DNA of 64,000 nucleotides from Candidatus Moraniibacteriota bacterium (GTDB taxonomy: Bacteria > Patescibacteriota > Minisyncoccia > Moranbacterales > UBA1568), in assembly GCA_016699425.1 (NCBI GenBank), contig CP064975.1, forward strand, positions 1,149,369 to 1,213,368. The letters run 5' to 3'. The position numbers were made by a program, and so were the translations under genes. Of this stretch, positions 2,943 to 30,261 are shown in pieces. Numbering within the stretch: position 1 is the first letter of the stretch; the number at the start of each line of letters is the position of its first letter. Below the pieces are notes generated by a model. The model saw only the letters and a program-made list of their open reading frames with translations, was not told the origin of the DNA and did no database searches.

Positions 2943-2962
2943 CGACGGAGTATACTACGGGA

Positions 2963-7164: not shown

Positions 7165-7233
7165 TCGGGTAGCCAAATCTGGATAGTATGTTGTATACTA
7201 TTATAAGTACCGTGTGAATAGGTGAGAGGATTA

Positions 7234-7262
7234 TTGACAGGCCACTTTTTTTCGTGTATACT
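7234..7262 (+). promoter_or_regulatory. Sigma70-type promoter TTGACA-17-TATACT
   Basis: TTGACA at 7234-7239, a 17-nt spacer, then TATACT at 7257-7262. Confidence 0.6.
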
Positions 7263-7277
7263 GGGTACATGAATGAG

Positions 7278-7313
7278 AAACGGGTGGCCATCATGGTATC
7301 CGTTTTCTTTTTT
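7278..7313 (+). terminator. Intrinsic-terminator-like hairpin plus U-tract in the leader of gene 7340 (alternatively the terminator of gene 6079..7164)
   Basis: Stem AAACGG / CCGTTT with a structured loop, followed by TCTTTTTT. Confidence 0.5.
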
Positions 7314-7339
7314 GGGATAGAATAAAATAAACATTCATT

Positions 7340-8401
7340 ATGGTCCGTTTCTCTGCAGTCCAAAAAACATCAATCCTTGAGATTTTCTCGCTGCTTTTGG
7401 TTGTCGTACTTCCATTGTTCCTTCCGACGCACTCGGCACAAGCAGCGGGTTTTCTTCAAACATGGGTGCGGCTTGATCGAATGAAAGCCTCGACCTTTAC
7501 GAGTGGCTTAGTGTGTGCTCAGACTCCGGCAACTGATACGGGCACCGAAGTCGATGTCCAAGTTGTCTTTCCGAGTGACTTTGTTGTTGGTACCACGCTC
7601 ACTGATTGGGCTGTGGCCACAACGGATCTTCCCTCGGGTGCTACGATATGGCCAGGCATTGGTCAAGCAACAGCGGCTAATAACACTACGAAAACAGTCA
7701 CTTTTCCATCAACCGCACTTACCACGAGCACGCTCTATTGCTTCCGGTGGACCAACAGTACAGCGGCCCTGCAAACTGGTTCAAGCGGAGCCAATAAGAC
7801 GGGTACCGTGACGACGCGGGCTACCGGACCGACAGATCTTGATTCCTCGGCATATTCGACGGCCATCGTTTCTGACGATCAGGTTGTCATTACAGCAACT
7901 GTTCCCGCCACGTTTAGTTTCAGTCTTCCCACTAACTCGATTGCGTTTCTATCCAATCTTACGACAACACCCGTTCTAACCAGTACCTCAGTAGCTACTA
8001 TCTCAACCAATGCAGCTTCGGGCTGGGTAGCCTGGGTGAAGAGTGCTAACGCTGCCCTCAGCTCGGTTTCGACTGGGGCATCGATACCAACTGCCGGATC
8101 GATTGATAATGCGGTGACAGATGTTGCTTCGACCAACGGATATTTCCTTGATGTTGCTTTCACAGATAGTGGCACTGGCACCGGGACTGTTACTCAAGCA
8201 GCTAATTATGGTCAGGAATACAATGGTGATGCTACGCATGGTGGGACACTTTCAACCACATTTCAACCAGTGGCTGCGAGTAGCGGTACTACTGACGGAG
8301 ATACGCTAACCTTTACGGCACTTGCAAGAATCTCGGCTATTCAGGCAGCAGCGACGGACTATACTGATACATTGACTATCGTGGCCGCGGGCCGGTTCTA
8401 A
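7340..8401 (+). CDS. Secreted Thr/Ala-rich surface protein (paralog B) with a conserved C-terminal motif
   Basis: Signal peptide ending SAQAAG. C-terminus ...AATDYTDTLTIVAAGRF parallels paralog A (DYT[ED]TLT[VI]xA..F). Confidence 0.5.
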   Translation: MVRFSAVQKTSILEIFSLLLVVVLPLFLPTHSAQAAGFLQTWVRLDRMKASTFTSGLVCAQTPATDTGTEVDVQVVFPSDFVVGTTLTDWAVATTDLPSGATIWPGIGQATAANNTTKTVTFPSTALTTSTLYCFRWTNSTAALQTGSSGANKTGTVTTRATGPTDLDSSAYSTAIVSDDQVVITATVPATFSFSLPTNSIAFLSNLTTTPVLTSTSVATISTNAASGWVAWVKSANAALSSVSTGASIPTAGSIDNAVTDVASTNGYFLDVAFTDSGTGTGTVTQAANYGQEYNGDATHGGTLSTTFQPVAASSGTTDGDTLTFTALARISAIQAAATDYTDTLTIVAAGRF

Positions 8402-8424
8402 AGGCAATTTTCAAAGTAACCACG

Positions 8425-8447
8425 AAATCCCCGTTCTGGGGATTTTT
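8425..8447 (+). terminator. Rho-independent terminator
   Basis: AAATCCCC-GTTCT-GGGGATTT followed by TTGC. Lies 24 nt after the 7340..8401 stop. Confidence 0.6.
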
Positions 8448-8563
8448 GCTTATTCTGGGCTCATTTCACGATTTCCGATATACTGGTAGTGAACCATTTT
8501 ATCTCTCCCCTACGACGCTCACGAAACCGATCCTGAGATATTCTTTCGCCCTGACGCTCGCGT

Positions 8564-9599
8564 TTGGGTTTTTCCTCCCCCCCACCCTCGCCTTCCGCCC
8601 AGGACGGATCCCTGCCTGACCGGCAGGCAGGCCTTCGCATCGTCACTTCCCCCCTCCCGATCTCACTCGTCGCCGAACCAGGGACGACCATCACGACCGA
8701 ACTGAAGGTGAAGAACGGCGGCACCGAACCTGAGACCCTGAAGATTGATATCCTGAAGTTCAACGCCTATGAAGACACGGGGAAGCCCGCCCTCCACGAC
8801 CTTGAACCGACGGATGAGTTCGCGAAATGGGTGACCTTCTCCGAACCGACCTTTACCGTGTTGCCCGAGGAGTGGAAGACGGTCACGGCCACGTTCACCG
8901 TCCCGGAGGAAGCCTCGTTCGGTTACTACTACGCCTTCGTTTTCTCTCGGGCCGAGGATCAGGAAGCCAAGCCTGGAGAGACGGCGGTCGTCGGCGGCAC
9001 GGCGACCCTCGTCCTCCTCGAAGCACGGGTACCAAATGCCTTGCGTGAGATCACCGTCACCGAGTTCTCGACGGACAAGACGGTCTATGAGTTCCTCCCG
9101 GTCAACTTCACCGTTTCTCTCAAGAATTCGGGCAATGTCCATGTCGCCCCGCGGGGCAATATCTTCCTCTCTCGGGGCAGTAACAAAGACATCGCCCTCC
9201 TCGAACTCAATTCCGGCAAGGGGAGCATCCTCCCGGATTCAACGCGTATCTTTGAGACGGGATGGAAGGATGGCTTCCCAGTTTACGAGGAAACGATCGA
9301 AAATGGCCAAGTCGTGCTCGATGAACTCGGTCATCAGACCTATCACCTGACCTGGGACTTCAAGAACGCTTCCCACCTCCCGTTTCGGCAAGTATACTGC
9401 CAAGATGCTCCTCGTTTACGATGATGGGACGCGGGACATCCCGATCGAGGGAGTGGTATCGTTTTGGGTGATGCCGTGGCGGTTGATTGCGGGGGCGGTG
9501 TTCAATTTCGCACTCATTATCGGACTCGGCTGGTATGTCATCCGCCTGCGCCGACGTTTGAAGCGGCTTCAATCAAATGATCAGTCACTCGTGAAATAG
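8564..9599 (+). pseudogene. Cell-surface beta-sandwich protein with a C-terminal TM anchor (duplicated family, copy 1); frameshifted
   Basis: Body ORF 8564..9424 continues as ORF 9405..9599 (TM tail WVMPWRLIAGAVF...) after a +1 C in a C-run near 9392. The signal-peptide region carries a further +C shift. Confidence 0.5.
8592..9530 (+). repeat. Tandem gene duplication, copy 1 (~940 bp, period ~1063 bp)
   Basis: Identical to 9655..10567 except for three short homopolymer indels. The shared antisense ORF N-termini (MNFRISIFRVSGSVPP...) confirm the repeat. Confidence 0.85.
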
Positions 9600-9602
9600 A
9601 GT

Positions 9603-10654
9603 ATGAAGTATTTCTTCCTCATCCTGACCATCGCTTTCCTCACCCCCTCCCTCGCTTCCGCCCAGGACGGATCCCTGCCTGACCGGCAGGCAGGCCTTCG
9701 CATCGTCACTTCCCCCCTCCCGATCTCACTCGTCGCCGAACCAGGGACGACCATCACGACCGAACTGAAGGTGAAGAACGGCGGCACCGAACCTGAGACC
9801 CTGAAGATTGATATCCTGAAGTTCAACGCCTATGAAGACACGGGGAAGCCCGCCCTCCACGACCTTGAACCGACGGATGAGTTCGCGAAATGGGTGACCT
9901 TCTCCGAACCGACCTTTACCGTGTTGCCCGAGGAGTGGAAGACGGTCACGGCCACGTTCACCGTCCCGGGAGGAAGCCTCGTTCGGTTACTACTACGCCT
10001 TCGTTTTCTCTCGGGCCGAGGATCAGGAAGCCAAGCCTGGAGAGACGGCGGTCGTCGGCGGCACGGCGACCCTCGTCCTCCTCGAAGCACGGGTACCAAA
10101 TGCCTTGCGTGAGATCACCGTCACCGAGTTCTCGACGGACAAGACGGTCTATGAGTTCCTCCCGGTCAACTTCACCGTTTCTCTCAAGAATTCGGGCAAT
10201 GTCCATGTCGCCCCGCGGCAATATCTTCCTCTCTCGGGGCAGTAACAAAGACATCGCCCTCCTCGAACTCAATTCCGGCAAGGGGAGCATCCTCCCGGAT
10301 TCAACGCGTATCTTTGAGACGGGATGGAAGGATGGCTTCCCAGTTTACGAGGAAACGATCGAAAATGGCCAAGTCGTGCTCGATGAACTCGGTCATCAGA
10401 CCTATCACCTGACCTGGGACTTCAAGAACGCTTCCCACCTCCGTTTCGGCAAGTATACTGCCAAGATGCTCCTCGTTTACGATGATGGGACGCGGGACAT
10501 CCCGATCGAGGGAGTGGTATCGTTTTGGGTGATGCCGTGGCGGTTGATTGCGGGGGCGGTGTTCATCGGCATCTTCTTCCTCATCGGTATGAAGTCAACT
10601 CTCTCAAAAATATGGAAACGTCTCTTCTCGCGTTCATCCGAAACTTCTGTCTGA
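9603..10654 (+). pseudogene. Cell-surface beta-sandwich protein with a C-terminal TM anchor (duplicated family, copy 2); two frameshifts
   Basis: Good signal peptide MKYFFLILTIAFLTPSLASA. A +G at about 9967 and a -GG at about 10212, relative to copy 1, split the reading frame across ORFs 9603.. and 9890..10654. Confidence 0.5.
9655..10567 (+). repeat. Tandem gene duplication, copy 2
   Basis: See copy 1. The flanking signal-peptide and C-terminal tail regions differ between the two copies. Confidence 0.85.
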
Positions 10655-11568
10655 TGCGGACTTGTTGGTGTCTTATTTTTGCCCTGTCGATACTCCTGTT
10701 GTACACCTCGATTGCTCAGGGTGCGGGTTTCACGGTGACCCCGATGATTCAGGAAGTAGTCTTGGGCGAAGGTGAAGCAGCGAAGACATACGACGCGACG
10801 GTTGCCAATGAGAGTGACAGTCTGGCGACACTTGAAATTTCAGTTATTGACTTTGGCAGCTTGGATGAATCCGGAGGCGTCGCATTCCTCGGTGCGTCGG
10901 GCGAATTGGACGAGCGGTATGCGCTCGCTTCTTGGATGCAGCCGGAGACAAGCGAGGTCACCCTCCAGCCCGGTGAGGTACGATCGGTCAAAGTGCGGAT
11001 TGAGAATCGTGAGAGTTTGTCGCCAGGTGGGCACTATGGGGCGCTGGTGTTCAAGACAGTCTCAACCACCAAACCAGATATCCCAAGTGTCGCCATCAAT
11101 CAGATATTTTCGTCGCTCGTTCTCGTGAAGAAAACTGGTGGGGCGGTTTACGGCCTTGATTTGGTCTCGGTCGAACATCCGGATCAGGTGTTTTCATTCG
11201 GCGCCACGGTTGTACCGCGTTTCAAGAATCCTGGCAATGTCCATGTCGTCCCTCGCGGCGTGGCGAGCGTGACGGATCCGTTGGGCCGGCTCGTCTATCG
11301 AGGCGTCCTCAATGAGGGGTCTGCCATTATCCTGCCTGAGACATTCCGTGAATTCCCGTTCAAGCTTTTCCCTGTGGAGAAAGCCTTTGTTCCAGGAGCG
11401 TATGTTCTGACGCTTCAGTACCGCTATGATGGGAAGGACGCCTTTGAGACCTGGTCGAAGCGTTCCTTCCTATTCCCTCCACTCCTTACGAGTATCTTGG
11501 CCGCACTTTTCACTCTCAGTCTTGTCGCCTTCGGTGTCCTCCGACGTCGAGGTCGCCGGTCTGTCTAG
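10654..11568 (+). CDS. Cell-surface beta-sandwich protein with a C-terminal TM anchor (diverged intact paralog of the duplicated family)
   Basis: ATG at 10654. Signal peptide ...SIAQGAG. Conserved FKNPGNVHVVPRG vs LKNSGNVHVAPRG in the duplicates. C-terminal TM plus basic tail RRRGRRSV. Confidence 0.6.
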   Translation: MRTCWCLIFALSILLLYTSIAQGAGFTVTPMIQEVVLGEGEAAKTYDATVANESDSLATLEISVIDFGSLDESGGVAFLGASGELDERYALASWMQPETSEVTLQPGEVRSVKVRIENRESLSPGGHYGALVFKTVSTTKPDIPSVAINQIFSSLVLVKKTGGAVYGLDLVSVEHPDQVFSFGATVVPRFKNPGNVHVVPRGVASVTDPLGRLVYRGVLNEGSAIILPETFREFPFKLFPVEKAFVPGAYVLTLQYRYDGKDAFETWSKRSFLFPPLLTSILAALFTLSLVAFGVLRRRGRRSV

Positions 11569-11614
11569 AAACACTCGTCGTCAGGCGGGGGTCAGCGTGT
11601 TAGGATATCGTCAT

Positions 11615-12241
11615 ATGGAGGAAGAAAAGATTGATAACATCGCTCATCGCCGGCCATCCCGTCGCTTAGTGTACTGGTTAGTAGTTTTGGTGCTGCTCAG
11701 TCTCATTCTCTGGTTTCTTTGGTGGCTGTTCCAGCGTCCATCGCATGGAACCGTATCGATTGCCCCGGCGGTCGAGAAAACGGACTACGCCGATCCCGAT
11801 CATCGCAAGCGCTATCAGGGAAAGTTCTTTACTTTCACGTACCCCTATGATTTCAATCGACGTGAAGAGGTAGAGACTGTCAAACATCCGCTGTTAGAGC
11901 GCGTTTACCTCTCACGGAGCGATATCGAGGGACGAAAAATTGCATTCACCCTGCAGGATAATTCTGGGTATGCCTTTGAAGAGTATTCGAGCTTCCGAAT
12001 GCGTGCGAATGATCCGGCAACCTATCGACAGGAGAAAATTGAGATAAATGGCTTGAACGCGGTCATCTTCACAAAAATTACGAGCGTTTTTGAAGAGAGT
12101 GCCTTTTTTCAGAACAATAACCGTGTCATGAGCGTTGTTGTTTCATCACCGACGACACAAAACGGGCTTCGAGAAGAGCTCGTGGCCATATTTGATTCGT
12201 TTGCTTGGATCAGCGAGAAATCTGAGCGAATTCAGCCTTGA
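11615..12241 (+). CDS. N-terminally TM-anchored hypothetical protein
   Basis: ATG at 11615 in frame within ORF 11426..12241. TM helix LVYWLVVLVLLSLILWFLWWLF. No recognisable domain. Confidence 0.45.
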   Translation: MEEEKIDNIAHRRPSRRLVYWLVVLVLLSLILWFLWWLFQRPSHGTVSIAPAVEKTDYADPDHRKRYQGKFFTFTYPYDFNRREEVETVKHPLLERVYLSRSDIEGRKIAFTLQDNSGYAFEEYSSFRMRANDPATYRQEKIEINGLNAVIFTKITSVFEESAFFQNNNRVMSVVVSSPTTQNGLREELVAIFDSFAWISEKSERIQP

Positions 12242-12373: not shown

Positions 12374-15300
12374 ATGTTGTCACCCAAAAAACACAAGCTC
12401 AAATCAAAAAATATTCAGCGCTCATTCCGCCGGTACTTCCCCGGTGTGGTTGGATTTTTTCTGCTCACGCTTGCATCGTTTCTCATCGCGACGGACATCG
12501 ATGCGGCGACGGGTATCAACAAGCAAATCAGTTTTCAGGGCAAGGTCGTGAATACGAACGGGACGAATGTCTCGAACGGGAGCTACAACTTCCTGTTCTG
12601 TCTCTACACGACTGCGAGTCCAGCGACGCCGTGTACGGCTGGATCAAACAATGATGCGGTCTGGCGTGAATCAAAAAGTCTCACGGTCACGGACGGCATC
12701 TTCCAATCAAATCTCGGCGATACTACAGCGCTCCCGGGTTCGGTGGATTTCAATACAGACAATATTTATCTCGGCATAAATTTCAATAGCGACGGGCAGA
12801 TGTCACCGCTTGTCCGATTCACGGCTGCGCCGTACGCGATGAACGCAGCGAAGGTCGGCGGGCTGACGGTGACGGACACGACCGGCACGCTCACGATCCC
12901 AAACGCCAAGACCGTTCAATTTGCGGATGCGTTTACGACGACGGGTGCATTTCCGTTGACACTGACGTCGACGGCCAGTACGACGGCGACACTGCCTTCG
13001 GGAACGATCACTCTGGTCGACCTGGCAACATCACAGTCGCTTACCAACAAAACAATCGGTTCGACAGGACTGACATTTTCCGGTGCGTCGACGGATATCA
13101 CGACGGCCACGGGCGAGGACCTGACAGTGGTGGCCAATGGGGCCGGGATAATCAATCTCAATGATTCGGTCACGACCGGTGCGCTCACCATTTCTGGTGC
13201 GACCACGGACATCACCACCGCATCGGGCGAGTCACTCGTCATCGTCGCCAACGGAGCGGGGGTCGTCGATATCCAGGATGCGACGACGGTGGATTCGCTC
13301 ACCGCAGACACCGGCGGCGTCTCGATCGCTAGTGGACAGAGCTATACCGGTGCCGGCGCGGTCACGCTTTCATCGGCTGCGACGACCGCCCTCACCGTCG
13401 ATTCGGGGACGACCGGTGCACTCAATCTCGGGACCAGCAACAATGCGAAGACCATCTCACTTGGTACCGGTACCGCCGGCAACACGATCAATGTCGGGAC
13501 AGACAACACGACCAAGGACACGATCAATATCGGCTCGGCGCTCGATGATGTCGCTATCACTGGCGACCAATGGAGTATCACGAATGCGGGAGTCTTGACC
13601 GTGGTGTCGTGTAGTGGGTGCGGGGGAGGCGGAGGGACACTCGATAGCGCGTACACGGCTGGCAATACGATTACAACGGACAGTGGGAACAATGTCATCA
13701 TCACGCTTCAAGAGGTGGCGACCCCGACATCGTTCGTCGTCGAGAATCAGGATACGGCGGGCGTCTCGGCGGAGCGGGTCTTCAACTCGATCGCCTCTGG
13801 CACGCTCACCAATGGACTGCTCATCGAACAGGCCGGTGCAGGTACGATGACCAATGCCATCCAGATTGCCGAGACCGCCGGGACCATCACTGATGGCATC
13901 CTCATCACTGGCACACTGGGCAATATCTTGAACTCCCCCTCGCTCGATATCACGGGTGCAGGGGCCATCACTGGTGCGACCGGGATTACCTCGGCGACGG
14001 GGGATATCACCGCTACGGCAGGGAACATCGTCTTGAATAGCACAACGCGGATCTCAAATGCTGGTGTCGGTACATTCATCACAGGCACAGTGATCGGTTC
14101 GCAGACCTTTACGACCAACAATATCGCTGACTCAGGCGCACTCACGATTGCTTCTGCTGCCGCATCGGCCCTGACCCTGAACTCGGGCACGACTGGGACG
14201 ATCGATATCGGGACAGATGCCAGCGCTGAGACGATCAATATCGGCAATACCGGTGCGGCCGTGAAGACGATCGCGATCGGCAACAACTCACAGGCCAACA
14301 CCATCACCATTGGTGATGCGTCGGCGACGAGCGTCTCCATCACGGACAATAACTGGTCGATTTCAACAGCGGGTGCTGGGGCATTTACTTCACTCTCATC
14401 CACGGGTGCCATCGCTGCCAACGGTGGCATCACCTTCGACAACACCTCCGACACCGTTGGTTCCTTCACCTCATCCGGCACCATCCTGATGAACTCGAAC
14501 ATCCTCCAAGATATCGGCAACACCGGTACCGACTTCATCGCCAGTACCGGAGCCCTCACCCTCGCCGGCGTGCTGACAGCCAATGGCGGCATCACCTTAG
14601 CGGGGAGCCAGTCCTTCGCGGCTTCCGCCCTCTCCTATATGGACCTCGGTCTCATCACGCACAGTACGACTGCCAATCAAGGCCTCCGTCTCCCCAATGC
14701 GGCGAGTGCTACCCCGTCCAACCCAACCTCAGGGGAAGGCTATCTCGCGTGGGATGCCGCGGGGAATCAGCTCATTACGTACAATGGGAGCGCGTGGACG
14801 ACTTTGACCGGCAGTGCTTCAGATCTCCAAACTGCCTATAATACCGACGCTGACGGATCGAACGCGACCATCTCCCTCACTGCCGCTGATGACGGCCTCA
14901 TCATCACCAACCCTACCTCAGCCGGTAACAACCTCTCCGCCTTCACCCTCCAAGTCTCCCAGCTCAATACGACCGCGGCGATCACGGCTATTGATATCAT
15001 CCAAGCGAGCAATGCGGCGAACGGGGTTGACATCACCGCCAACGCCATTGATACGGAAACAGCGCTCGCCGTGACGGCCAATGTTCTGACTTCCGGCAGA
15101 GCCCTCACCCTCGCCTCCTCCTCCGTCGCCTTCACCGGTGCCCTCGAATCCATCACCCTCTCTGGCTCCAATGCCGCCAATACCGGCAATCTCCTCCTCA
15201 TCGCTGACACCGGTGCTCTCAATACCACCACCTCCTTCAAAGTCACCGCCAATGGGGCGGCTACTCAGGTTGCTGCCTTGATCGAAAACACCGGCTCCGG

Positions 15301-18300
15301 TACGAGCTTCCGTGTCAACGATGTCGCCAGTGACACCGACCCCTTCCTCATCGACGCGACTGGCAATGTCGGTATCGGCGACGCTACCCCGAACACGATT
15401 CTGGACGTTCTCTCCTCGGGTGCCGCGGACACGGTCTTCACCCTGGCCAATACCAATGCTGGTGACTTTGATCCGATCGTGAAGTTTGAACTCACCGAAG
15501 GCACCCCCCTCTTCACCCTCGGCATCGATGACTCAGACTCCGACAAGTTCAAGATCTACTCTGGGGATGGTCTCGCCAGTGGGGATGAGTTTGTCATTGA
15601 CGCGAGCGGTACCACCACCATCGCTAACCTCAACCTGGGCGCTACCTCCTTTGATACCGATGCTGGGGCCGTGACCTGGATCGATATGCCGGTGACGAGC
15701 GGGGCGGCGGACAATACGGTGGAATCGTACACGTCGCAGCTCGATGGCCAGAGTATGCTCACGGTGTACGCCCTCTCCGATGGGGCGGGGAGCATCGATA
15801 CTCGGCGTGTCCAGCTCGGGGACGGCGGGGCAGGTGTGGCTCAGCCGGTTCTGCTTGGATTGGATGTCCGGACAGGCACGGGGGATCCGACGGATGGTTT
15901 CGAAGGGGCCATGTACTACAACACGACGGACAATGTCTTCCGCTGTTACCAAAACACCGGCTGGACGAACTGCATCGGTTCGGGTGGTTCCACCGACCTC
16001 CAGACCGCCTACAACACGGACGCTGACGGTACCAACGCGACTATCTCCCTCACCGCCGCTGACGATGGCCTCATCATCACCAACCCGACCTCGGCCGGCA
16101 ACAACCTCTCCGCCTTCACCCTCCAAGTCTCTCAGCTCAACACGACTGCTGCGATCACGGCCATCGATATCATCCAGGCATCCAATGCGGCGAACGGCGT
16201 CGACATTACCGCCAACGCGATCGATACCGAGACGGCCCTGACGGTCACTGCCAATGCGCTGACGACGGGCCGGGGCCTCTCGATCGATGCGGGCAATACG
16301 ATGACGACGGGCGGCGCGCTCAGTATCAGCGGTACGACCTATGTTCATGGCGCGGAGACGGGGAGCCTTGTGAGCTTGGCCGTTACCGACGCGACGACGG
16401 CGGCAGTAACCAGTACGACCAACACCCTTCTCGTATCGCCCACGATCAATGCTCCCTCGGGTGCCGCAACGAGAACTATAAGCGGTGTTTCTGTCACTCC
16501 GACAACGACGGCCTGTGCCGCCGGTACCTGTGCCGTGAACGGTTTCAATGTGGGCGCTATCACCGAAGGTGCTGACGCAGCGAGATTCGCGAGTACAGCA
16601 CTCAATATCGGCACGGGTTGGGACACCTTCCTCGACACGGCTTCCCTTGATATCACCGGCGCGGGGGCCATCACCGGCGCGACGGGTGTTTCGACTACGA
16701 CGGTGACGGCCTCATCCACCATCGCGGCCAATGGTGGCATCACCTTCGACAACAACACCGACACCGTCGGCTCGTTCACCTCATCCGGCACCATCCTGAT
16801 GAACTCGAACATCCTGCAGGATATCGGCAATACCGGCACTGACTTCATCGCCAGTACCGGGGCCCTCACCCTCGCCGGCGTCCTCACAGCGAACGGCGGC
16901 ATCACCCTCGCGGCGAGCCAGACCTTCACGGGTTCGTCGCTCTCGTACATGGACCTGGGTGCCATCACGCACGGGACGACGGCAGTGCAGGGACTCCGAT
17001 TGCCGCAGGCGGCGAGCGCCAGCCCGTCGAGTCCGAGCTCGGGCGAGGGTTACCTGGCCTGGGACGCGGGCGGCAACCAGGTCATCTATTACAACGGCGC
17101 GGCCTGGGCGACATTTGGTGCGGGCGGCGGTTATAATTTGATCAAAGATGAAGCCTCAAGCCTTACGGCCCGGACCACGCTCGCCTTCCTCGGTGCGGGC
17201 GTATCGTGTGCGGACAATGCGTCGCAGACCGAGTGTACGATTTCAGGCGGCGCGGGCTCGGATCTGCAGGGGACCTATGGCGCTGATGCCGATGGTTCGA
17301 ATGCGACCATCTCGCTCACCAGCGCGGATGACTCGCTCGTCATCCGTAACCCGTCCTCGGCGGGCACCGACTCGGCCTTTACCTTCAAGGTGGAACAGCT
17401 CAATACCGGGATCGACAATGACGTCATCTATGCCGACAACCGCGGCACGGGCGACGGTCTCCGTATCGATGACACGTCTGGTGATACGACACCGTTTATC
17501 GTTGACCAGCATGGTCGGGTAGGCATCGGGACAGCGTCTATAAGTGGAAATGCTTCCACAGAGCGTCTGTTACAGGTTGGTTCCGAGACTACGCGCGGAA
17601 ATTCGGCGACCTATGGGGAAATAATCAGTAAGGGGCTGAATAGGCATACAGCTCTCACCAACATTCAAGACATCTTTGTCTATGATACGACAGGGGATAG
17701 TGATGGCGGACGTTGGATCGATTGGGCGACCACGGACAACCTGTCTTGGTACTCTGAAACACTTGATGATGGACCAAATGATCCGTGTAATATTGCCAGC
17801 GATGACCGTTGCTATAATAGCTCTTTTCCCCGGAAAGCCATCCTGGTCGTAACGACCGATGCTCTCTATATCTTCGACGCAGCGACGAACGACATGTGGA
17901 TGAAGTTTAGTCAGAATGCTTCGGGATATGCTCTCGGGGTAGATACCAACAATGATCCCTCGAGTGTTCATGCGCTGAATGGTGTCGTCTATGTTGGTGC
18001 CAACGGTACATCAGCTGGTGGTTTGTACGCCATCGACTTCGTGAATGATCGCATGTGGAACTACGGTGGCACCAATCGTTCTGCGGCGGATACTGGTATC
18101 AGCGGACGCAATGCTGCGGTGACATACAATGTCGACAGCAATGCCAAGCTTGAAATCTCACCCGTTGGGACACAGGCAGAATGGGAGCGAGTGAACGATG
18201 TCCATGCAGTGGTGATGTCGCGCACCCAATCAGCGGTAACGGCTCTCGGTAGTGCAACCAATACGAACCCTGGCTATGGTAAAGTCTTTATTGGACTTGC

Positions 18301-21300
18301 GACCGACTCTGGGGTAACGATAATCAACCCATCGGGCCAAGTCTTGAACCAGTATTCGGATGTCACCGCCGATGATTACACAGCGGTCGCACTCTCAAGC
18401 AGAGGGTTTATGTATGCGCTCAATACCACGCAGGACCAACTCGAGCGCTGGGATACGATTGACACTGATAAGGCGAGTGAGGTGAATGGTACGTTTAGTC
18501 GTAAATGGGATGAGACGATTGGGACTGGCCCAGCCCTCGCTTCGGCGACCTTCAATATTGTGGCTGGGATGCCAGATAACCTGGAGATTGCCGAACGCGC
18601 CTCGAATAATTTGAACACGGAAGACGTTATTTATGTTGGCCATAGTCTTGGCATGGCGGAACTGCATGAACATACGACGCAGGCCTTTGGCTGGGTCAAG
18701 CATTACAATGCAACCCGTCAAACGCCGATGATGATGCTCGCTGGTATAAATGATATGGTGCTTCCCATGGACGATACCTCTGGAACCCAGGCGCAGGACC
18801 TCGCTATCGCCAATACGGACATGGCCATCAAAGGAACACCAACGCTCGGGGTGAACGGTGTGCAGGGCAAGGCAATAAACTTCGATAATACCGACGATTA
18901 TCTGTGTTCTGATAATGATCAGAACAATACCTGCGATGTCGATACCGCTTTTAATATGTCGACGGTCGGTTGGACGCTCAGTCTGTGGTTTCGGCATTCG
19001 ACCACAGCACCGGCCTCGGGTGTCGATATGCTTTTTGAAAAATGCGTGACGGCGACACCGGGCCAGGCGATAGGCTGCGTAGCCGCCTACATGACTACTA
19101 CCGGTGTAGTAGTAGTTGCCAATGATGATGATGCGACTTGGACCCAAGGGTCGTCGTATGATATTACCGCTACCTCGACCTATGCTTACAATGACAACCA
19201 GTGGCACAACCTGATTATCACAAGAACCAACGCCAACGACGTGGATTCCTGGATCGATGGGCAGGGCATGAACCTTTCCACGGCTACCGGTCTGACAGCT
19301 ACGTTTGACGGTTCGCAGATCGTCAGTATTGGTGCTTCCTGTGTGACGACAGTGACCGCCAACTGTGGTGCAGCCACAAATTTCTGGGATGGCCAAATTG
19401 ACGATGTGCAATACATTGTCGGGACAACGACACAAGCGACCATGACTCAGCTCTATGTTCGCCGGTATTTCAATGTGGAACGACCCCGGGCGAGCAAGAA
19501 AACGGTATCTGTGACCAACGCTACCTCAGCTTCCTCGACTTCTTTGACCGATACGGGGGAGGCTTGGTATGTAAACGAATTTGCCGGACAGATTGTCGAG
19601 ATTACGGGGAGTGACGATGCGGATTGTATCGGCATCACACGACGTATCTCCTCCAACACGGCCACAGCACTCACTTTTACCCCGGCCGTACCGGGAGCGT
19701 GTACCATGGATACTTCGGCTGACTTTCGGATTGATCCAGAGAAGCTCTATGGTGCATCGAGTAGTATTGCCGGCATCGGCATTACGGCAGAAACGCCGCT
19801 TGGTGAAGCCCGTCAACTGTGTGTGGGAACCAATAGTGGCACCGATACGGGTGGTGTGACTTGTTATAACCATCAAGACGGCCCGAGTATCGTGGCTGAC
19901 GTCTATCATAGCCAAGCGAGCAAAACAGATGATAGCGGCACGGACTGGACAGGAACGGATTATGACGACATACGGGCAGTCGATCTTTCTTCTCGAACGC
20001 TCATCATAGCTTCCGAAGGACACTTTACCAGCAGAACGGAAGACGTGCGTCTGGGGCAAGGTCTGGAATATATCAGTAACCAACTCTATGCCATTCGTCA
20101 GGAAATCGTTCTCGACGGTATCACAGCGGTCGGGAGTACGGGTTCAGAAATCGGTTTCACTGGTGGGGCGGACTTGGCGGAGCGGTACTATTCGAATGAG
20201 GCGCTCGTAGCGGGCGAGGTGGTCGCGATTGATTCGTCTCTGGAGGCGGGCGTGAAGAAAACTGTCGGGGCGTATCAGCGTGATGTGCTCGGTATAGTGG
20301 CGACGACTCCTGGCATCGTCCTCGGCGCCGAGGCGGAAAACGGGTATCCGATCGCGCTCGTCGGCCGTGTCCCGGTGAAGGTGACGAATGAAAATGGCCA
20401 GATCTATGCGGGTGACCGGGTGACCGCCGCGAGCCGGCCGGGTCATGCCATGCTCGCGACTCAGGCCGGCCGCGTCATCGGCCAGGCGCTGGGCGATGCG
20501 GTCGACTGGACGGTCTGTGAAGGGGAGGACCCGTTGAATCACGATGCCGTACTCTGCACGACGGTCATGGTCTTCGTCAATCTGTCGGACTACTACGGCC
20601 AGCCAGTCGAGCTCGCCATGGCGGCCCGTGATGCGGCGGATGCAGCTCTGGCTCCGGAGGTCGGGGACGAGGAGCTGGGACTGTCCGGTGCGGGTACTAC
20701 GGTCCGGCTCGTGACGGCCGCTCCGACACGGGAGGAGAAAATCATGGCGTTTCTGAAGGAAATCCGTGACGAGCGGGCGCAGTCAAACGCTGCTCCGTCC
20801 GAAGTCTTCACCGATCGGGTGGCTGCCAGTACCGAGATCATCACACCGAAATTGATCGTCGATGAGATATTTGCGAAGTCGATCAAGGCGGACAGTATCG
20901 AAGGGCTGTCTATCTGGACGGATCAGATTGCATCACTCCAGGAAAAGTATGCTGGGCTCGAGGCGGCTCCTCTGACGGATACGACTGGTACCTCGGCTGT
21001 GCCTCCATCCCTCGCGGTCGCGATGAAACAGCTCGCCACGGATTCGATCACGGTGCAGCTCGATGGTTCTATCCTCGGCAAACTCTCGGTCGAGGGGGCA
21101 CTCCGGATTGGCGGGGATGCACAGTTCGATGGCAACACGGTCTTTGCCAGGCTCGCCTCCTTCCTCGGCGATACGTTGTTCCAGGGCAAGGTGTTCTTTG
21201 AGCAAGCACCGACCTTTGGTTCAAATACGGCGGGCTTCGCCCTCATCGAACAGGGAGCGAAACACGTGCGGGTGAGTTTCGATGAGTCGTATGAGGAGCA

Positions 21301-21769
21301 ACCGATCGTGACCATCACCCTCGCCCGCGACACCTCACTCCTCCTCGATGAAGCAGCCAGTGCTGAGCTGAAGGCCGATGTTGCCGCAGTGGACCAGGAC
21401 TTCGCCGAGACGGTCTTCGAGAGTGATGTCCGGTATATCATCACTGAGAAAGACCAGACGGGCTTCACCATCCTGCTCTCGGAGGCGGCGCCGGTCGATC
21501 TCCAGTTCAGCTGGGTCGCGCTCGCCGTGAAAGGCGCGAAGCCTTTTGTCTCGGACAAGCGTGAAACGTCAAACCAGGGAGAGAGTGAGACAGTAATACC
21601 GGTACCGGAACCCGCGACCCCTCCATCTCAAGTAGGGGTGGAACCAGAACCGGCACCGACGCCACTCCCCGAGACCCTGCCCGCGGATACCTCATCTGAC
21701 GAAGCGTCTCCTCCAGACACGGATCCACCGGTGGCCTCCTCGGACATCCCGCCCTCGGGCACCATCTAA
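12374..21769 (+). CDS. Giant (3131 aa) cell-surface fibre/adhesin-like protein
   Basis: Uninterrupted ATG ORF. N-terminal signal-anchor. Long Thr/Gly/Ala-rich beta-strand repeats (ITGAGAITGATGIT...). A large internal repeat pair. A LamG/concanavalin-like segment at about 18.8-19.5 kb. A Pro-rich C-terminal tail. Confidence 0.85.
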   Translation: MLSPKKHKLKSKNIQRSFRRYFPGVVGFFLLTLASFLIATDIDAATGINKQISFQGKVVNTNGTNVSNGSYNFLFCLYTTASPATPCTAGSNNDAVWRESKSLTVTDGIFQSNLGDTTALPGSVDFNTDNIYLGINFNSDGQMSPLVRFTAAPYAMNAAKVGGLTVTDTTGTLTIPNAKTVQFADAFTTTGAFPLTLTSTASTTATLPSGTITLVDLATSQSLTNKTIGSTGLTFSGASTDITTATGEDLTVVANGAGIINLNDSVTTGALTISGATTDITTASGESLVIVANGAGVVDIQDATTVDSLTADTGGVSIASGQSYTGAGAVTLSSAATTALTVDSGTTGALNLGTSNNAKTISLGTGTAGNTINVGTDNTTKDTINIGSALDDVAITGDQWSITNAGVLTVVSCSGCGGGGGTLDSAYTAGNTITTDSGNNVIITLQEVATPTSFVVENQDTAGVSAERVFNSIASGTLTNGLLIEQAGAGTMTNAIQIAETAGTITDGILITGTLGNILNSPSLDITGAGAITGATGITSATGDITATAGNIVLNSTTRISNAGVGTFITGTVIGSQTFTTNNIADSGALTIASAAASALTLNSGTTGTIDIGTDASAETINIGNTGAAVKTIAIGNNSQANTITIGDASATSVSITDNNWSISTAGAGAFTSLSSTGAIAANGGITFDNTSDTVGSFTSSGTILMNSNILQDIGNTGTDFIASTGALTLAGVLTANGGITLAGSQSFAASALSYMDLGLITHSTTANQGLRLPNAASATPSNPTSGEGYLAWDAAGNQLITYNGSAWTTLTGSASDLQTAYNTDADGSNATISLTAADDGLIITNPTSAGNNLSAFTLQVSQLNTTAAITAIDIIQASNAANGVDITANAIDTETALAVTANVLTSGRALTLASSSVAFTGALESITLSGSNAANTGNLLLIADTGALNTTTSFKVTANGAATQVAALIENTGSGTSFRVNDVASDTDPFLIDATGNVGIGDATPNTILDVLSSGAADTVFTLANTNAGDFDPIVKFELTEGTPLFTLGIDDSDSDKFKIYSGDGLASGDEFVIDASGTTTIANLNLGATSFDTDAGAVTWIDMPVTSGAADNTVESYTSQLDGQSMLTVYALSDGAGSIDTRRVQLGDGGAGVAQPVLLGLDVRTGTGDPTDGFEGAMYYNTTDNVFRCYQNTGWTNCIGSGGSTDLQTAYNTDADGTNATISLTAADDGLIITNPTSAGNNLSAFTLQVSQLNTTAAITAIDIIQASNAANGVDITANAIDTETALTVTANALTTGRGLSIDAGNTMTTGGALSISGTTYVHGAETGSLVSLAVTDATTAAVTSTTNTLLVSPTINAPSGAATRTISGVSVTPTTTACAAGTCAVNGFNVGAITEGADAARFASTALNIGTGWDTFLDTASLDITGAGAITGATGVSTTTVTASSTIAANGGITFDNNTDTVGSFTSSGTILMNSNILQDIGNTGTDFIASTGALTLAGVLTANGGITLAASQTFTGSSLSYMDLGAITHGTTAVQGLRLPQAASASPSSPSSGEGYLAWDAGGNQVIYYNGAAWATFGAGGGYNLIKDEASSLTARTTLAFLGAGVSCADNASQTECTISGGAGSDLQGTYGADADGSNATISLTSADDSLVIRNPSSAGTDSAFTFKVEQLNTGIDNDVIYADNRGTGDGLRIDDTSGDTTPFIVDQHGRVGIGTASISGNASTERLLQVGSETTRGNSATYGEIISKGLNRHTALTNIQDIFVYDTTGDSDGGRWIDWATTDNLSWYSETLDDGPNDPCNIASDDRCYNSSFPRKAILVVTTDALYIFDAATNDMWMKFSQNASGYALGVDTNNDPSSVHALNGVVYVGANGTSAGGLYAIDFVNDRMWNYGGTNRSAADTGISGRNAAVTYNVDSNAKLEISPVGTQAEWERVNDVHAVVMSRTQSAVTALGSATNTNPGYGKVFIGLATDSGVTIINPSGQVLNQYSDVTADDYTAVALSSRGFMYALNTTQDQLERWDTIDTDKASEVNGTFSRKWDETIGTGPALASATFNIVAGMPDNLEIAERASNNLNTEDVIYVGHSLGMAELHEHTTQAFGWVKHYNATRQTPMMMLAGINDMVLPMDDTSGTQAQDLAIANTDMAIKGTPTLGVNGVQGKAINFDNTDDYLCSDNDQNNTCDVDTAFNMSTVGWTLSLWFRHSTTAPASGVDMLFEKCVTATPGQAIGCVAAYMTTTGVVVVANDDDATWTQGSSYDITATSTYAYNDNQWHNLIITRTNANDVDSWIDGQGMNLSTATGLTATFDGSQIVSIGASCVTTVTANCGAATNFWDGQIDDVQYIVGTTTQATMTQLYVRRYFNVERPRASKKTVSVTNATSASSTSLTDTGEAWYVNEFAGQIVEITGSDDADCIGITRRISSNTATALTFTPAVPGACTMDTSADFRIDPEKLYGASSSIAGIGITAETPLGEARQLCVGTNSGTDTGGVTCYNHQDGPSIVADVYHSQASKTDDSGTDWTGTDYDDIRAVDLSSRTLIIASEGHFTSRTEDVRLGQGLEYISNQLYAIRQEIVLDGITAVGSTGSEIGFTGGADLAERYYSNEALVAGEVVAIDSSLEAGVKKTVGAYQRDVLGIVATTPGIVLGAEAENGYPIALVGRVPVKVTNENGQIYAGDRVTAASRPGHAMLATQAGRVIGQALGDAVDWTVCEGEDPLNHDAVLCTTVMVFVNLSDYYGQPVELAMAARDAADAALAPEVGDEELGLSGAGTTVRLVTAAPTREEKIMAFLKEIRDERAQSNAAPSEVFTDRVAASTEIITPKLIVDEIFAKSIKADSIEGLSIWTDQIASLQEKYAGLEAAPLTDTTGTSAVPPSLAVAMKQLATDSITVQLDGSILGKLSVEGALRIGGDAQFDGNTVFARLASFLGDTLFQGKVFFEQAPTFGSNTAGFALIEQGAKHVRVSFDESYEEQPIVTITLARDTSLLLDEAASAELKADVAAVDQDFAETVFESDVRYIITEKDQTGFTILLSEAAPVDLQFSWVALAVKGAKPFVSDKRETSNQGESETVIPVPEPATPPSQVGVEPEPAPTPLPETLPADTSSDEASPPDTDPPVASSDIPPSGTI
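14822..15075 (+). repeat. Intragenic repeat unit B, copy 1 (DLQTAYNTDADG...IDTETAL module)
   Basis: Roughly 90% nucleotide and near-identical amino-acid match to 15995..16250. A second module (ANGGITFDN...YNGSAWTT) also recurs, at about 14397-14810 and 16720-17110. Confidence 0.8.
15995..16250 (+). repeat. Intragenic repeat unit B, copy 2
   Basis: See copy 1. Synonymous-site divergence suggests an old duplication maintained at the protein level. Confidence 0.8.
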
Positions 21770-21857: not shown

Positions 21858-22473
21858 CCACTTTCCATTCGTACACTCAATAATCCTTTAATCCTTCCAT
21901 TTTCTTTTGACAGCGGGTTTTATGTCTCTTTCTTTTCATACGCAAGTCCTTCCCACTTTCTTTGTGCAGACAAAGAAAGTTCCAAAGAAAACTGCCGCCC
22001 GGTTTTCAGCTCGGAGAGTTTCTCGATTGACTCCGACCATTTCCTCTCGAGGGACTGAGGAAATGGCTACTCTCCGCCAATCGGAAACCCTCGCCTCGCT
22101 TGTCACCAAGGGCGTATAGGGAAATCGAATGCATTCGCATAGAGAGCGGTCTTTTTGGATTCGAATTTCTGAAATCACCCATTGTGGAAGGTGAAACGAT
22201 TGCTCTATGGCCAGAAGATCAGGGCTTCATCAGTCCCTCGCGATGAAGCCCCTGAAGGCCATAGCCAGCAATCGCATGAACCGAGAACACGGGTGCGCTT
22301 TTCTTTGGTTCGTTTCTTTGTGCGGATAAAGAAATGAACGAAGACCCTTTTCTGTTAAAAGAAAGTGGAACATATCTCTGGCTCCCGCTCCCGGTAGCAT
22401 GTCATTGAAGCGAGGTGATCGGGAATTTCGTTAACGGGGCTTGATAGAAGGAAAATATGCTAGAATTATTCTT

Positions 22474-23472
22474 ATGAATGCGAAGATTTTTACTGCGCTT
22501 GCGGCGCTTTTTGGTGTCGGTCTCATCGGTGGCTATGTCCTGCGCGATGTATGGGACGCTCGCCAGACGACTGCGACTGCGGAAATGGACAGCACCTCGA
22601 GACAGGTCCGCCAAATGGGGCAGTATACCTATACCAATCCGCTCCTGGAGTGCGAGGTGGCTGAAGGGACGCTCGATGCTCGGAAGGAAAACTTCCATGA
22701 TGCCCTAGAAAAGTATGTGCGTCAGCTGAAAATCGAGAGAAAACTGTCGGATGTCGCCGTCTATTTCCGTGATCTGAATAATGGTCCGACCTTTGGCATC
22801 GGGGAACGAGGCGAGTTTTTCCCGGCGTCGCTCCTGAAAGTGCCGATCATGATGGCGTACTACCACCTCGCTGAGCAGAATCCATCCATCCTCGGCGTGG
22901 AGATCCGTTTCGAGAAACCGGTTGACTTTGACATCACGCCGACTATTTTACCCCGTGAATCGCTCGTCGTGGGTGAATCATATACGGTCGATGACCTCGT
23001 CCGGCGGATGATCGTCTACTCGGACAATCAGGCACTGTCTCTCCTCTCGGCCCGCCTCCCGCTAGCCGTCCTCCAAGACCTCTTCGCGATGCTCGACGTC
23101 GGTGGGGACGTGCTGGCCGATTCCGAGGCGAAGCTGACCGTGAAAGAGTATGCTGGATTCTTCCGTATCCTCTTCAATAGTTCGTATCTCTCGCGCAATT
23201 TTTCCGAAAAGGCGCTCGCGCTGCTCGCCAAGACGGATTACGCTGACGCGCTCCCAGCTGGTGTACCGTCCGACATGATGATTGCGCACAAATTCGGCGA
23301 AGCGGGGACGGAGGATGCCGAACGGCAACTCCATGACTGCGGTATCGTCTACTTCCCCGACCATCCGTATCTCGCCTGCATCATGACGCGGGGCAGCAAG
23401 GCGGAGGATCTGAAGGACACCATCGTCGACGTCTCGAAATTTATCTATGAGAAAATCGATGAACAGTACTAA
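22474..23472 (+). CDS. Class A beta-lactamase-like serine hydrolase with an N-terminal TM anchor
   Basis: SxxK (PASLLK), SDN (VYSDNQA) and KTG-like (HKFGEAG) motifs. The ORF track starts at TTG 22441; the ATG is at 22474. Confidence 0.6.
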   Translation: MNAKIFTALAALFGVGLIGGYVLRDVWDARQTTATAEMDSTSRQVRQMGQYTYTNPLLECEVAEGTLDARKENFHDALEKYVRQLKIERKLSDVAVYFRDLNNGPTFGIGERGEFFPASLLKVPIMMAYYHLAEQNPSILGVEIRFEKPVDFDITPTILPRESLVVGESYTVDDLVRRMIVYSDNQALSLLSARLPLAVLQDLFAMLDVGGDVLADSEAKLTVKEYAGFFRILFNSSYLSRNFSEKALALLAKTDYADALPAGVPSDMMIAHKFGEAGTEDAERQLHDCGIVYFPDHPYLACIMTRGSKAEDLKDTIVDVSKFIYEKIDEQY

Positions 23473-28750: not shown

Positions 28751-28906
28751 TTGGACGGATCGATTCGAGCTCCTGAGCTTTCCTTGAAGGGTAGCCGCCG
28801 CGACGGTTGCCTTTTTTCTTTTCTTCCCTATAATGAGAACGTTGCCTACGAGGCAGCTTAACAATCGAATATTCCGGCGTAGCTCAGTGGTAGAGCAGGT
28901 GACTGT

Positions 28907-29480: not shown

Positions 29481-29514
29481 TAATCACTTGGTCGTAGGTT
29501 CGAACCCTACCGCC

Positions 29515-29600
29515 GGAGCAGTTAAATTCAAGGCTTACTCAAGCCTTGTTTTTTGTTACCCTTCATGAAGGTTAGAACCTGGTATAATCAGGGTATGAAT
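29515..29600 (+). repeat. Intergenic cassette A: tRNA 3' end + terminator + GTTACCCT + extended -10 (TGgTATAAT at 29580-88)
   Basis: Homologous to cassettes at 30262..30345 and 34012..34090. The -10 lies 6 nt before the ATG at 29595. Confidence 0.6.
29530..29554 (+). terminator. Rho-independent terminator after the tRNA (part of repeated cassette A)
   Basis: AAGGCTT-ACTC-AAGCCTT followed by GTTTTTT. Confidence 0.65.
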
Positions 29601-30211: not shown

Positions 30212-30261
30212 ATATTCTCGTACTGGCGTAAAATTACGGTTCTAACACCATTCACGATGCG

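Follow-up and report, generated by a model that had tools for sequence, protein, structure and literature searches.

A 64,000-nucleotide stretch from a Candidatus Moraniibacteriota bacterium (GenBank assembly GCA_016699425.1, contig CP064975.1, positions 1,149,369 to 1,213,368 of the forward strand), called the window below, contains a single open reading frame (ORF) for a protein of 3131 residues. The bacterium is tiny and probably host-dependent, a member of the Patescibacteria (candidate phyla radiation, CPR). The gene probably specifies a secreted fibre of the cell surface that follows the design of a phage tail spike or tail fibre, by our inference a trimer that attaches to glycans. The C-terminal part of the protein contains a module that we conclude to be a distant homologue of the D4 domain of phage phi29 gp12, the G2 domain (MEROPS G2, PF11962).

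The gene and its orthologues

The ORF occupies exactly the interval assigned to it by the original prediction, and its parts are collected in Table 1. A GGAG sequence is found ~9 nt 5' of the ATG, and the gap to the preceding gene contains a terminator-like hairpin of that gene. An open frame of 3131 codons in DNA of 55% G+C cannot arise by chance, and the ORF is a real gene. Several genes for secreted proteins are located 5' of it, and the genes on its 3' side are cellular: a Beta-lactamase2-family gene, a LytR_C gene, dnaG and rpoD.

The comparison with giant proteins of related genomes that had been proposed as a check was made by a scan of one genome per species, which found ten related loci. 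Complete, uninterrupted orthologues of 2328, 2939 and 2428 residues are present at L003, L004 and L011, respectively, in independent Moraniibacteriota assemblies. These three share neighbours, with two to three genes of ~360 residues upstream and a ~335-residue gene directly downstream, followed by genes of the size of dnaG and rpoD. Residues 44-280 are 73-81% identical to the three complete orthologues by alignment, and BLASTP gives 66-67% over residues 1-275 (L003) and 1-576 (L004). Over the C-terminal 1450 residues, identity is ~76-78% for L003 and L004 and 44-59% for L009, L010 and L011. The middle of the protein varies in length and content among orthologues, and the length differences trace to the stalk region. 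Conserved ends with a variable middle are expected of a fibre, in which the ends have specific jobs and the stalk lengthens or shortens over evolution as repeat modules are gained or lost.

The closest relatives of every part of the protein are found in Moraniibacteriota and other Patescibacteria. The giant protein has no match in PHROGs or in NCBIfam, and a scan of IMG/VR with the C-terminal 521 residues found no relative. The metagenome-assembled genomes with the close orthologues at L003, L006, L009, L010, L011 and L012 are titled "uncultured Bdellovibrionales bacterium", and these look like mislabelled Patescibacteria bins.

A module related to phi29 gp12 D4

For the C-terminal 521 residues before the Pro-rich tail, 36 relatives were found, all of them hypothetical proteins of Patescibacteria and mostly clipped by contig ends. 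Their alignment has three conserved parts, which are the module, a helical linker and a C-terminal domain. The module has the consensus GGADLAExY...LGVVST.PG...PIALVGRVPVKV...GD.LT.S..PGYAM...AGRVIG.AL...VMVFVNL, and a profile of it (alignment A2) found 445 proteins. Among the best 120 of these 445, eight carry a precomputed match to PF11962 (Peptidase_G2, "IMC autoproteolytic cleavage domain"); one of the PF11962 carriers also has Phage_T7_tail, and another match carries Mtd_N. Rescanning added weaker Phage_T7_tail and Peptidase_G2 matches on two more of these proteins. In rescans of module relatives with PF11962, P0190 scores 37.1 bits, P0043 28.5, P0144 28.3 and P0048 27.5, against a gathering score of 25.

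A direct link to gp12 comes from hhalign, which places ADLAERYYS...GIVATTPGIVLG opposite gp12 SDFAEYFES...GVISETAGFVLG with an E-value of 4.4e-5. The alignment sets A2599-D2600-L-A-E2603 against gp12 S691-D692-F-A-E695, and the same correspondence is found by hmmsearch with A2 (12.7 bits) and with a profile of 455 instances (20.1 bits). The domain therefore starts with D-x-x-E, as gp12 does with D692 and E695 after S691. Xiang et al. in 2009 are said to have placed the cut in gp12 between S691 and D692 and to have assigned catalytic roles to D692 and E695. The C-terminal domain of gp12 is removed after folding (PMC3357383), and mature gp12 ends in serine (PMC4690869). Tandem beta-tulips make up D4 and serve as an autochaperone for trimerisation; PBCV-1 Vp260 and some bacterial adhesion proteins share sequence homology with the region (bioRxiv 10.1101/216911).

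The predicted structure points the same way. The module is modelled by AlphaFold2 (AF2) with a predicted local distance difference test score (pLDDT) of ~90, and its best Foldseek match in the PDB is a phage procapsid cement protein, 8pkh, with a beta-tulip-type barrel. In BFVD the module matches proteins named "Preneck appendage protein" or "Preneck appendage protein barrel" with E-values of 5e-10 to 2e-9, 22-24% identity and template modelling (TM) scores of 0.58-0.59 (target-relative). Other BFVD matches include an Atu_ph07 protein (E 9e-11), Mtd_N proteins and giant-virus proteins. The AF2 model and the BFVD matches thus give the module a D4-type beta-barrel, or beta-tulip, fold. The original prediction had noted a conserved-looking module here that it could not assign; the conservation is strong in relatives, and the assignment to the gp12 D4/Peptidase_G2 group now takes the place of the blank. 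By analogy of the aligned residues, self-cleavage possibly occurs between A2599 and D2600.

Table 1. Features of the giant gene and its product, with positions counted from the first nucleotide of the window.
Feature	Residues	Position	Strand	Basis
Complete ORF	1-3131	12374..21769	+	ATG start, 3131 aa + stop codon
Sec-type signal peptide	1-44	12374..12505	+	Basic n-region, h-region aa 21-43, predicted cut IDA/ATG
Conserved N-terminal domain and first stalk repeats	45-275	12506..13198	+	Orthologue identity
Length-variable fibrous stalk	276-1676	13199..17401	+	Composition, orthologue comparison
Repeat A copy 1	680-811	14411..14806	+	DNA and protein self-comparison
Repeat B copy 1	815-941	14816..15196	+	DNA and protein self-comparison
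Repeat B copy 2	1206-1332	15989..16369	+	~75-77% aa identity to copy 1; first 99 aa 91%
Repeat A copy 2	1450-1581	16721..17116	+	85% aa identity to copy 1
Repeat B copy 3, weaker	1623-1693	17240..17452	+	~60% aa identity
Predicted beta-propeller, N-terminal blades	~1819-2124	17828..18745	+	Four-strand meanders in AF2 model
LamG/ConA-like jelly-roll domain	~2150-2349	18821..19420	+	Pfam, AF2 model, Foldseek
Beta-meander blades after LamG domain	~2407-2555	19592..20038	+	Model secondary structure
Predicted helix/neck before module	2560-2580	20051..20113	+	Model md82a175e17b7, residues 21-41
phi29 gp12 D4/Peptidase_G2-like beta-barrel (beta-tulip-type) module	2595-2745	20156..20608	+	Profiles, alignment, fold
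D2600-L-A-E2603, putative autocleavage/catalytic motif; predicted scissile bond A2599/D2600	2600-2603	20171..20182	+	Alignment to gp12
Conserved helical linker	2784-2864	20723..20965	+	SEVFTDR...EIITP...IFAKSIKADSIEGL; family alignment
Short beta-helix-like strand run	2894-2949	21053..21220	+	Six short strands in model
H-type-lectin-like C-terminal knob	2934-3060	21173..21553	+	pLDDT ~87, Foldseek
Pro/Glu/Ser-rich C-terminal tail (71 residues)	3061-3131	21554..21766	+	Sequence

Spread, copy number and position of the module

An exhaustive profile search for the module found 28,585 cluster representatives at E <=1e-3, of which 22,808 remain at E <=1e-10. The best 148 module proteins have a median length of 1728 residues and a maximum of 5766. 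Two copies in line, ~270 residues apart, are found in 140 of them and three copies in another 3, in a list that is biased to multi-copy proteins because their scores add up. The giant protein has one copy. Ten of the best relatives were looked up, and the four that are named are all from Patescibacteria (Falkowbacteria, "Patescibacteria group") and all "hypothetical". The D-x-A-E motif is near-invariant across 455 instances, with D in 396, A in 400 and E in 405 of ~410 ungapped positions (~97-99%), and is kept alike in first, second and third copies.

The position of the module in the chain differs from that in gp12. After the last copy, the best 148 proteins continue for a median of 262 residues, and in just 4 of the 148 does the last copy lie within 60 residues of the protein end. 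The extreme C-terminal placement of gp12 is thus found neither here nor in the other 144. At least 34 of the retrieved relatives repeat the series of module, linker, beta-helix and knob. In phages, tblastn of phage genomes located the module in two proteins that it closes at the C-terminus. One is a tail-fibre protein of a Campylobacter phage, and the other is a Pseudomonas phage PA5oct virion protein that is confirmed by mass spectrometry and encoded beside a tail-fibre gene. Internal position and multiplicity are the main departures from the phage paradigm, and are undescribed in the literature searched.

The distal cassette

The linker that follows the module matches its hidden Markov model in the giant protein with 120 bits. 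It is partly helical and has low pLDDT as a monomer, which is expected because a coiled coil was modelled as a single chain. The strand run beyond it overlaps a region with weak Bactofilin-type matches.

The C-terminal knob is modelled as a confident domain over residues 2949-3054, a sandwich interrupted by a long helical insertion (model residues 458-478). Its Foldseek matches include the Helix pomatia and Helix aspersa agglutinins (HPA and HAA), SLL-2 and discoidin II, with probabilities of 0.97-1.0 at 11-15% identity. The TM scores are 0.49-0.57 against HPA, HAA and SLL-2 and ~0.24 against discoidin II, with root-mean-square deviations of 7-13 A because the model spans several domains. Foldseek further pairs this end with the distal parts of tailspikes (Sf6 and Pam1), of the K1 lyase and of R-type pyocin fibres. 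The H-type lectin family PF09458 has weak matches in 10 of 26 family members (best E 0.0011) and none in the giant protein itself. The knob is predicted to be H-type-lectin-like, and its membership in the family is not established. The Pro/Glu-rich tail that had been described is present after the knob, and a hydrophobicity scan of the protein found no further hydrophobic segment after the signal peptide.

The head

The region between stalk and module was modelled with AlphaFold2 over residues 1740-2560 with 15 homologues (model m9c6819f7c276), giving a predicted TM score (pTM) of 0.68 and a mean pLDDT of 68. With moderate confidence, the head is a beta-propeller with a LamG/concanavalin A (ConA)-like domain inserted between its blades. 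The first part of the predicted propeller corresponds to the Trp/Asp-rich globular region (17.6-18.7 kb) that had been picked out by composition, and the blades after the LamG domain are predicted, from the pTM, to close the propeller.

The LamG/ConA-like assignment, also anticipated from the letters of the sequence, is supported by profile and by fold. In a scan of 400-residue segments, Laminin_G_2 (PF02210) scores 24.3 bits over residues 2264-2347, against a cut-off of 22.9, and 21.7 bits, just under the cut-off, on the whole protein. The orthologues match Laminin_G_3 (PF13385) with a best E-value of 8e-8. The top Foldseek matches of the head in the PDB are the ConA-like Hc domains of clostridial neurotoxins (E ~3e-9); other matches are WD40-type propellers and enzymes that combine a propeller with a lectin-like domain, such as sialidase and fructofuranosidase. 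The segment therefore has both a score above the Pfam gathering threshold and a jelly-roll fold, as expected for the LamG/ConA-like superfamily. The family motif WDGxIDDV is near-invariant. The propeller/LamG head is confined to a narrower set of relatives, from Moraniibacteriota, Campbellbacteria and Pacebacteria.

The N-terminus and the stalk

Residues 21-43 are the sole strongly hydrophobic stretch of the protein (19-mer scan, Kyte-Doolittle 2.0), preceded by nine basic residues and followed by IDA/ATG, where the slash marks the predicted cut. The orthologues have ALA/ATG, TLA/ATG and AEA/AAG at the same position, and then the conserved start GINKQISFQGKVV. The segment had been taken for a signal-anchor; because the AxA/A pattern is conserved in the orthologues, it looks instead like a cleavable Sec signal peptide of the signal peptidase I pattern. 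The domain after it, residues 45-165, is highly conserved. The region of residues 45-275 has no match in Pfam or in PDB sequences, and profile searches of PDB sequences with the whole protein and with the N-terminal domain gave nothing significant. The best of these matches, GFP and MD-1, were dismissed as chance similarities.

The stalk region (residues 166-1700) consists of 53% Thr, Ala, Gly and Ser, and the stalk matches no family in Pfam, PHROGs or NCBIfam. Beta-strand repeats of the form TGxx[LI]T had been proposed here, and the literal motif occurs once in the region against ~0.8 times in shuffled sequences. The stalk is made of degenerate Thr/Gly-rich repeats, not of a regular TGxx[LI]T array.

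Two larger repeat modules, A and B, each occur twice where the original prediction had placed them, and a weaker third copy of B can be added. The DNA of the pairs is 84% identical for A (14409-14708 vs 16719-17018) and 83% identical for B (14822-15113 vs 15995-16286). Conservation at the protein level with divergence at synonymous sites, as had been described, is confirmed by Nei-Gojobori estimates of synonymous (dS) and nonsynonymous (dN) divergence. Repeat A has a dS of 0.87 and a dN of 0.105 (dN/dS 0.12), and the first 99 codons of repeat B have a dS of 1.01 and a dN of 0.052 (dN/dS 0.05). The repeats are ancient duplications under purifying selection, because silent sites are near saturation while the protein sequence has been kept. 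A faulty assembly, whether collapsed or duplicated, would leave near-identical DNA, and the possibility that the repeats are an assembly artefact is therefore rejected.

The first 88 codons of repeat B (14816-15080 vs 15989-16253) encode near-identical protein at a dS of ~1. Such constraint is unusually strong for a stalk repeat; the segment could be a site of binding or registration, or its silent divergence could have been selected to avoid recombination between the copies.

Comparison with known systems

In both the giant protein and phi29 gp12, the first strand of the module opens with D-[LF]-A-E-x-[YF] (ADLAERYY here, SDFAEYFE in gp12), and the module follows the part of an elongated attachment protein that binds the receptor or acts as an enzyme. 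The two differ in that gp12 has a ~50-residue insertion in the middle of D4, which the giant protein lacks, and in that D4 ends gp12, whereas the module here is followed by linker, beta-helix, lectin-like knob and Pro-rich tail. Furthermore, the giant protein is Sec-exported, and it carries a propeller/LamG head on a 1400-residue stalk in place of the pectate-lyase-type beta-helix of gp12.

Other giant Patescibacteria proteins, such as MBI5071910.1 (Falkowbacteria), MEK7581360.1 and MFZ5365021.1 (Patescibacteria group), have the same internal module with D-x-A-E intact. Many share the cassette of linker, beta-helix and H-lectin-like domain; most top scorers have two to three copies of the module, in contrast to the one here. 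The phage relatives of the module include PA5oct gp359, the tail fiber protein of Campylobacter phage IBB35, and proteins of Agrobacterium phage Atu_ph07 and Sinorhizobium phage Phosso. They are 31-40% identical over 60-78% of the module, and the Atu_ph07 protein is the best fold match in BFVD. They differ in that, in both of the two inspected, one a virion component and one an annotated tail fibre, the module ends the protein and there is no signal peptide. H-type lectins are trimeric, and the resemblance to them lies in the predicted fold of the knob, a domain that here ends a probably trimeric fibre.

Large ConA/LamG-bearing surface proteins have been proposed as host-attachment candidates in episymbiotic Patescibacteria, such as Absconditicoccaceae (PMC13059738). 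These proteins, from the same phylum, are likewise very large, with a signal peptide and concanavalin-type domains. They differ in carrying fibronectin III, Ca-stabilised adhesin repeats, fibrinogen C and integrin domains, and neither a gp12-D4-like module nor an H-lectin knob is mentioned in the passages searched of that paper.

Three other kinds of fibre were considered and rejected. A trimeric autotransporter adhesin (type Vc) would be expected to match the YadA family, and there is no such Pfam match in any segment at E up to 1, nor any C-terminal hydrophobic or barrel segment. A fibre with an S74-type chaperone (endosialidase, T5 pb1 type) is not supported, as there is no Peptidase_S74 match in Pfam or PHROGs. 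Diversification by a diversity-generating retroelement, as in Mtd, was set aside in that no repeat pairs join the ORF to the rest of the 64-kb window; Mtd_N is limited to some distant relatives of the module.

A proposed fibre and its alternatives

The suggestion that the protein is an adhesin or fibre is strengthened by the secretion signal, the variable stalk, the two lectin-type folds and a distal cassette that resembles phage receptor-binding proteins, though it stays unproven. After export, the chains would probably assemble as trimers, with the gp12-like module nucleating and registering assembly as in phi29. Next, the module may sever the chain at the bond from Ala2599 to Asp2600, and a distal, lectin-tipped piece of 532 residues would either remain non-covalently bound or be released. 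The lectin-type domains would bind glycans on a host cell or particle and thereby mediate attachment. Docking of the fibre to the envelope may be the role of the N-terminal domain, possibly via the surface proteins resembling WxL-interacting proteins that are encoded upstream. A stronger version, in which the module is an in-line self-cleaving joint and the assembled trimer cuts at each D-x-A-E site, strikes us as rather improbable.

Several points weigh against the proposed fibre and its mechanism. The giant protein itself has no PF11962 match, whether searched whole, in 400-residue segments or as the isolated 151-residue module, at E up to 10, and its links to PF11962 and PF09458 are transitive or structural. 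The sequence alignment with gp12 spans only about the first third of the module, the gp12 precursor structure (3SUC) is not among the top 50 Foldseek matches in the PDB, and the H-lectin matches have weak E-values of 0.025-0.1. The module ends at residue 2745 of 3131, 386 residues from the C-terminus, whereas D4 is terminal in gp12; it is preceded by a propeller and one helix, with no triple beta-helix of the tailspike type. The release of gp12 reportedly needs ATP, again from the 2009 work of Xiang et al., and ATP is not available outside the cell. As the giant protein would fold outside the cytoplasm, ATP-dependent release cannot apply, and the C-terminal 532 residues may stay bound or leave spontaneously. 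The oligomeric state, the cleavage and the ligand are all inferred, and a cut signal peptide would leave the fibre with no evident hold on the cell.

A serious rival, possible but on balance doubtful, keeps the same fibre and takes the module to be a permanent barrel for trimerisation or interaction, a beta-tulip "joint" that does not cleave and leaves the chain intact. The module is internal here and in nearly all of the 148 best relatives, usually as two copies, and cuts at every copy would fragment the fibre. Beta-tulips are general trimer and interaction modules, as in non-cleaving decoration and cement proteins (10.1101/216911; 8pkh), and the auto-chaperone C-terminal domain of the P22 tailspike stays uncleaved (PMC3357383, PMC4690869). 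A non-cleaving role is harder to reconcile with the retention of D and E of D-x-A-E in ~97-99% of instances, both copies of two-copy proteins included, and with their exact alignment to the cleavage-site residues of gp12; two invariant acidic residues on the first strand are more easily explained by catalysis than by packing. The head might also be enzymatic, instead of or besides binding, and degrade host surface polysaccharide as phage tailspikes do. We consider this unlikely, even though sialidases and GH32/GH43 glycosidases are built as a propeller with an attached lectin-like domain, the Foldseek matches include the Trypanosoma rangeli sialidase and fructofuranosidase, and phi29 gp12 and many tailspikes are depolymerases (bioRxiv 10.1101/216911, PMC3357383). 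No glycoside hydrolase, lyase or sialidase family is found by Pfam or NCBIfam in the protein or its segments, the TM scores are low (~0.2 of the query) with non-enzymatic WD40-type propellers matching equally well, and no catalytic residues were identified.

The polarity of the fibre could be reversed, with the H-lectin-like knob and the Pro-rich tail anchored in the cell's own wall and the N-terminal domain distal and ligand-binding. In favour of this, the Pro-rich stretches of Gram-positive surface proteins often traverse the wall, and glycans of the cell's own wall could be ligands for a lectin domain. Given that the signal peptide looks cleavable, the N-terminus is probably free, and the N-terminal domain is as conserved as the head. 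Such an arrangement is nevertheless improbable: there is no hydrophobic segment beyond the signal peptide, the lectin or knob with its preceding beta-helix is the distal receptor-binding end in every structural analogue found (phage fibres, tailspikes and pyocins), and a possible cut upstream of the anchor would free the whole fibre. An origin of the ORF or of its repeats in faulty assembly, or of the gene in a prophage as a tail-fibre gene, is largely refuted and has very little probability left. A near-100% identical 0.9-kb tandem duplication ~3 kb upstream of the ORF does make local assembly errors possible, and the C-terminal cassette is phage-like. Against an artefact stand the 83-84% DNA identity of the repeats, with saturated synonymous sites and the reading frame preserved, and the complete orthologues with the same neighbours in independent assemblies. 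A prophage origin is opposed by the absence of a PHROGs match, the signal peptide, the chromosomal housekeeping neighbours and the lack of a close relative of the C-terminal 521 residues in IMG/VR. The secreted fibre of the phage spike plan therefore remains the reading that we favour.

Neighbouring features of the window

A cluster of genes for secreted proteins (6079-12241, +) lies directly 5' of the giant gene, with synteny kept in related genomes. It includes two paralogues of ~355 residues with signal peptides and similar C-terminal ends, ...YTETLTVLASASF and ...YTDTLTIVAAGRF, and two proteins with sub-threshold matches (E 0.0014 and 0.022) to PF06030, the peptidoglycan-binding domain of WxL-interacting proteins. 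One of the PF06030-like proteins (10525-11568) has a C-terminal membrane anchor. The layout resembles the loci for WxL-type cell-surface complexes of Firmicutes, and could provide a docking site for the fibre. The tandem duplication of ~0.9 kb (8592-9504 vs 9655-10565) has a spacing of 1061-1064, with register shifts of 1-3 nt between blocks, and affects a secreted Fn3_5/WxLIP_PGBD-like gene, of which the first copy is without a signal peptide and the second is frameshifted into ORFs at 9603-10112 and 9890-10654. Either the duplication happened very recently or the assembly is in error here; the repeats inside the giant gene, by contrast, are old.

On the other side, the Beta-lactamase2-family (PF13354) gene at 22441-23472 (+) directly follows the giant gene. 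A gene of the same family likewise follows the LamG homologue P0162 in a Campbellbacteria genome (L002, 6546-7538). An ORF of ~335-365 residues, identified by size and place, occupies the same slot in L003-L008, L011 and L012 and is absent in L009 and L010. The pairing of the giant gene with a Beta-lactamase2-family gene seems to be conserved across classes.

Further along the window, a tRNA gene (28873-29525, +) is split in the anticodon loop by an intervening sequence of ~575 nt. The insert contains a group I intron core (Rfam RF00028, 76 bits, 29171-29473) and, 5' of the core, an HNH-endonuclease-like ORF (...CSRCGYKRCQDALEFHHAHGG...CANCHREEH). ARAGORN finds no tRNA in the native sequence and finds one once the insert is removed. 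By group I junction rules, with the exon ending in U and the intron in G, the split gene reads as tRNA-Asn(GUU); the identity is uncertain, as other junctions give His or Thr. From ~30000 to 34000, the G+C content falls to 0.40, against 0.55 elsewhere, over ordinary cellular genes that include a Ham1-like NTPase and an ABC-2 transporter. Just downstream, at a G+C of ~0.48-0.53, are genes for a peptidase S51, a DUF305 protein and a copper-type P-type ATPase. Horizontal acquisition of the low-G+C stretch is possible.

Implications for attachment in Patescibacteria

The giant gene encodes a familiar general kind of protein and does not represent a new kind of system. Giant ConA-type surface proteins are already known in Patescibacteria (PMC13059738), and the homology between gp12 D4 and "some bacterial adhesion proteins" had been pointed out in 2009 (cited in bioRxiv 10.1101/216911). 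What is new is the assignment of a very large unannotated family to a G2-type module, and the finding of that module in exported proteins at an internal position, often duplicated, ahead of a lectin-tipped mini-fibre. The module profile flags ~28,600 protein clusters, and the current Pfam model misses the giant protein and about nine-tenths of its closest relatives listed.

If the module were a self-cleaving joint, one gene product would yield a chain of non-covalently coupled segments, here a stalk-and-head of 2555 residues and a lectin-tipped distal piece of 532, and relatives with two or three modules would yield three or four pieces. An episymbiont could use such joints as points of break-away or release when it detaches from its host or leaves a lectin "tag" on it. 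The phage autochaperone principle would then be in a use undescribed for cellular proteins, and without ATP.

Most Patescibacteria have not been cultured, and for many of them a life attached to other cells is assumed. In host recognition, the giant surface proteins are the obvious candidates, but nearly all are annotated as "hypothetical". The assignment of the C-terminal cassette gives these proteins a concrete candidate mechanism of assembly, by trimerisation and cleavage at a predicted bond, and it links the attachment machinery of phages with that of cell-attached bacteria.

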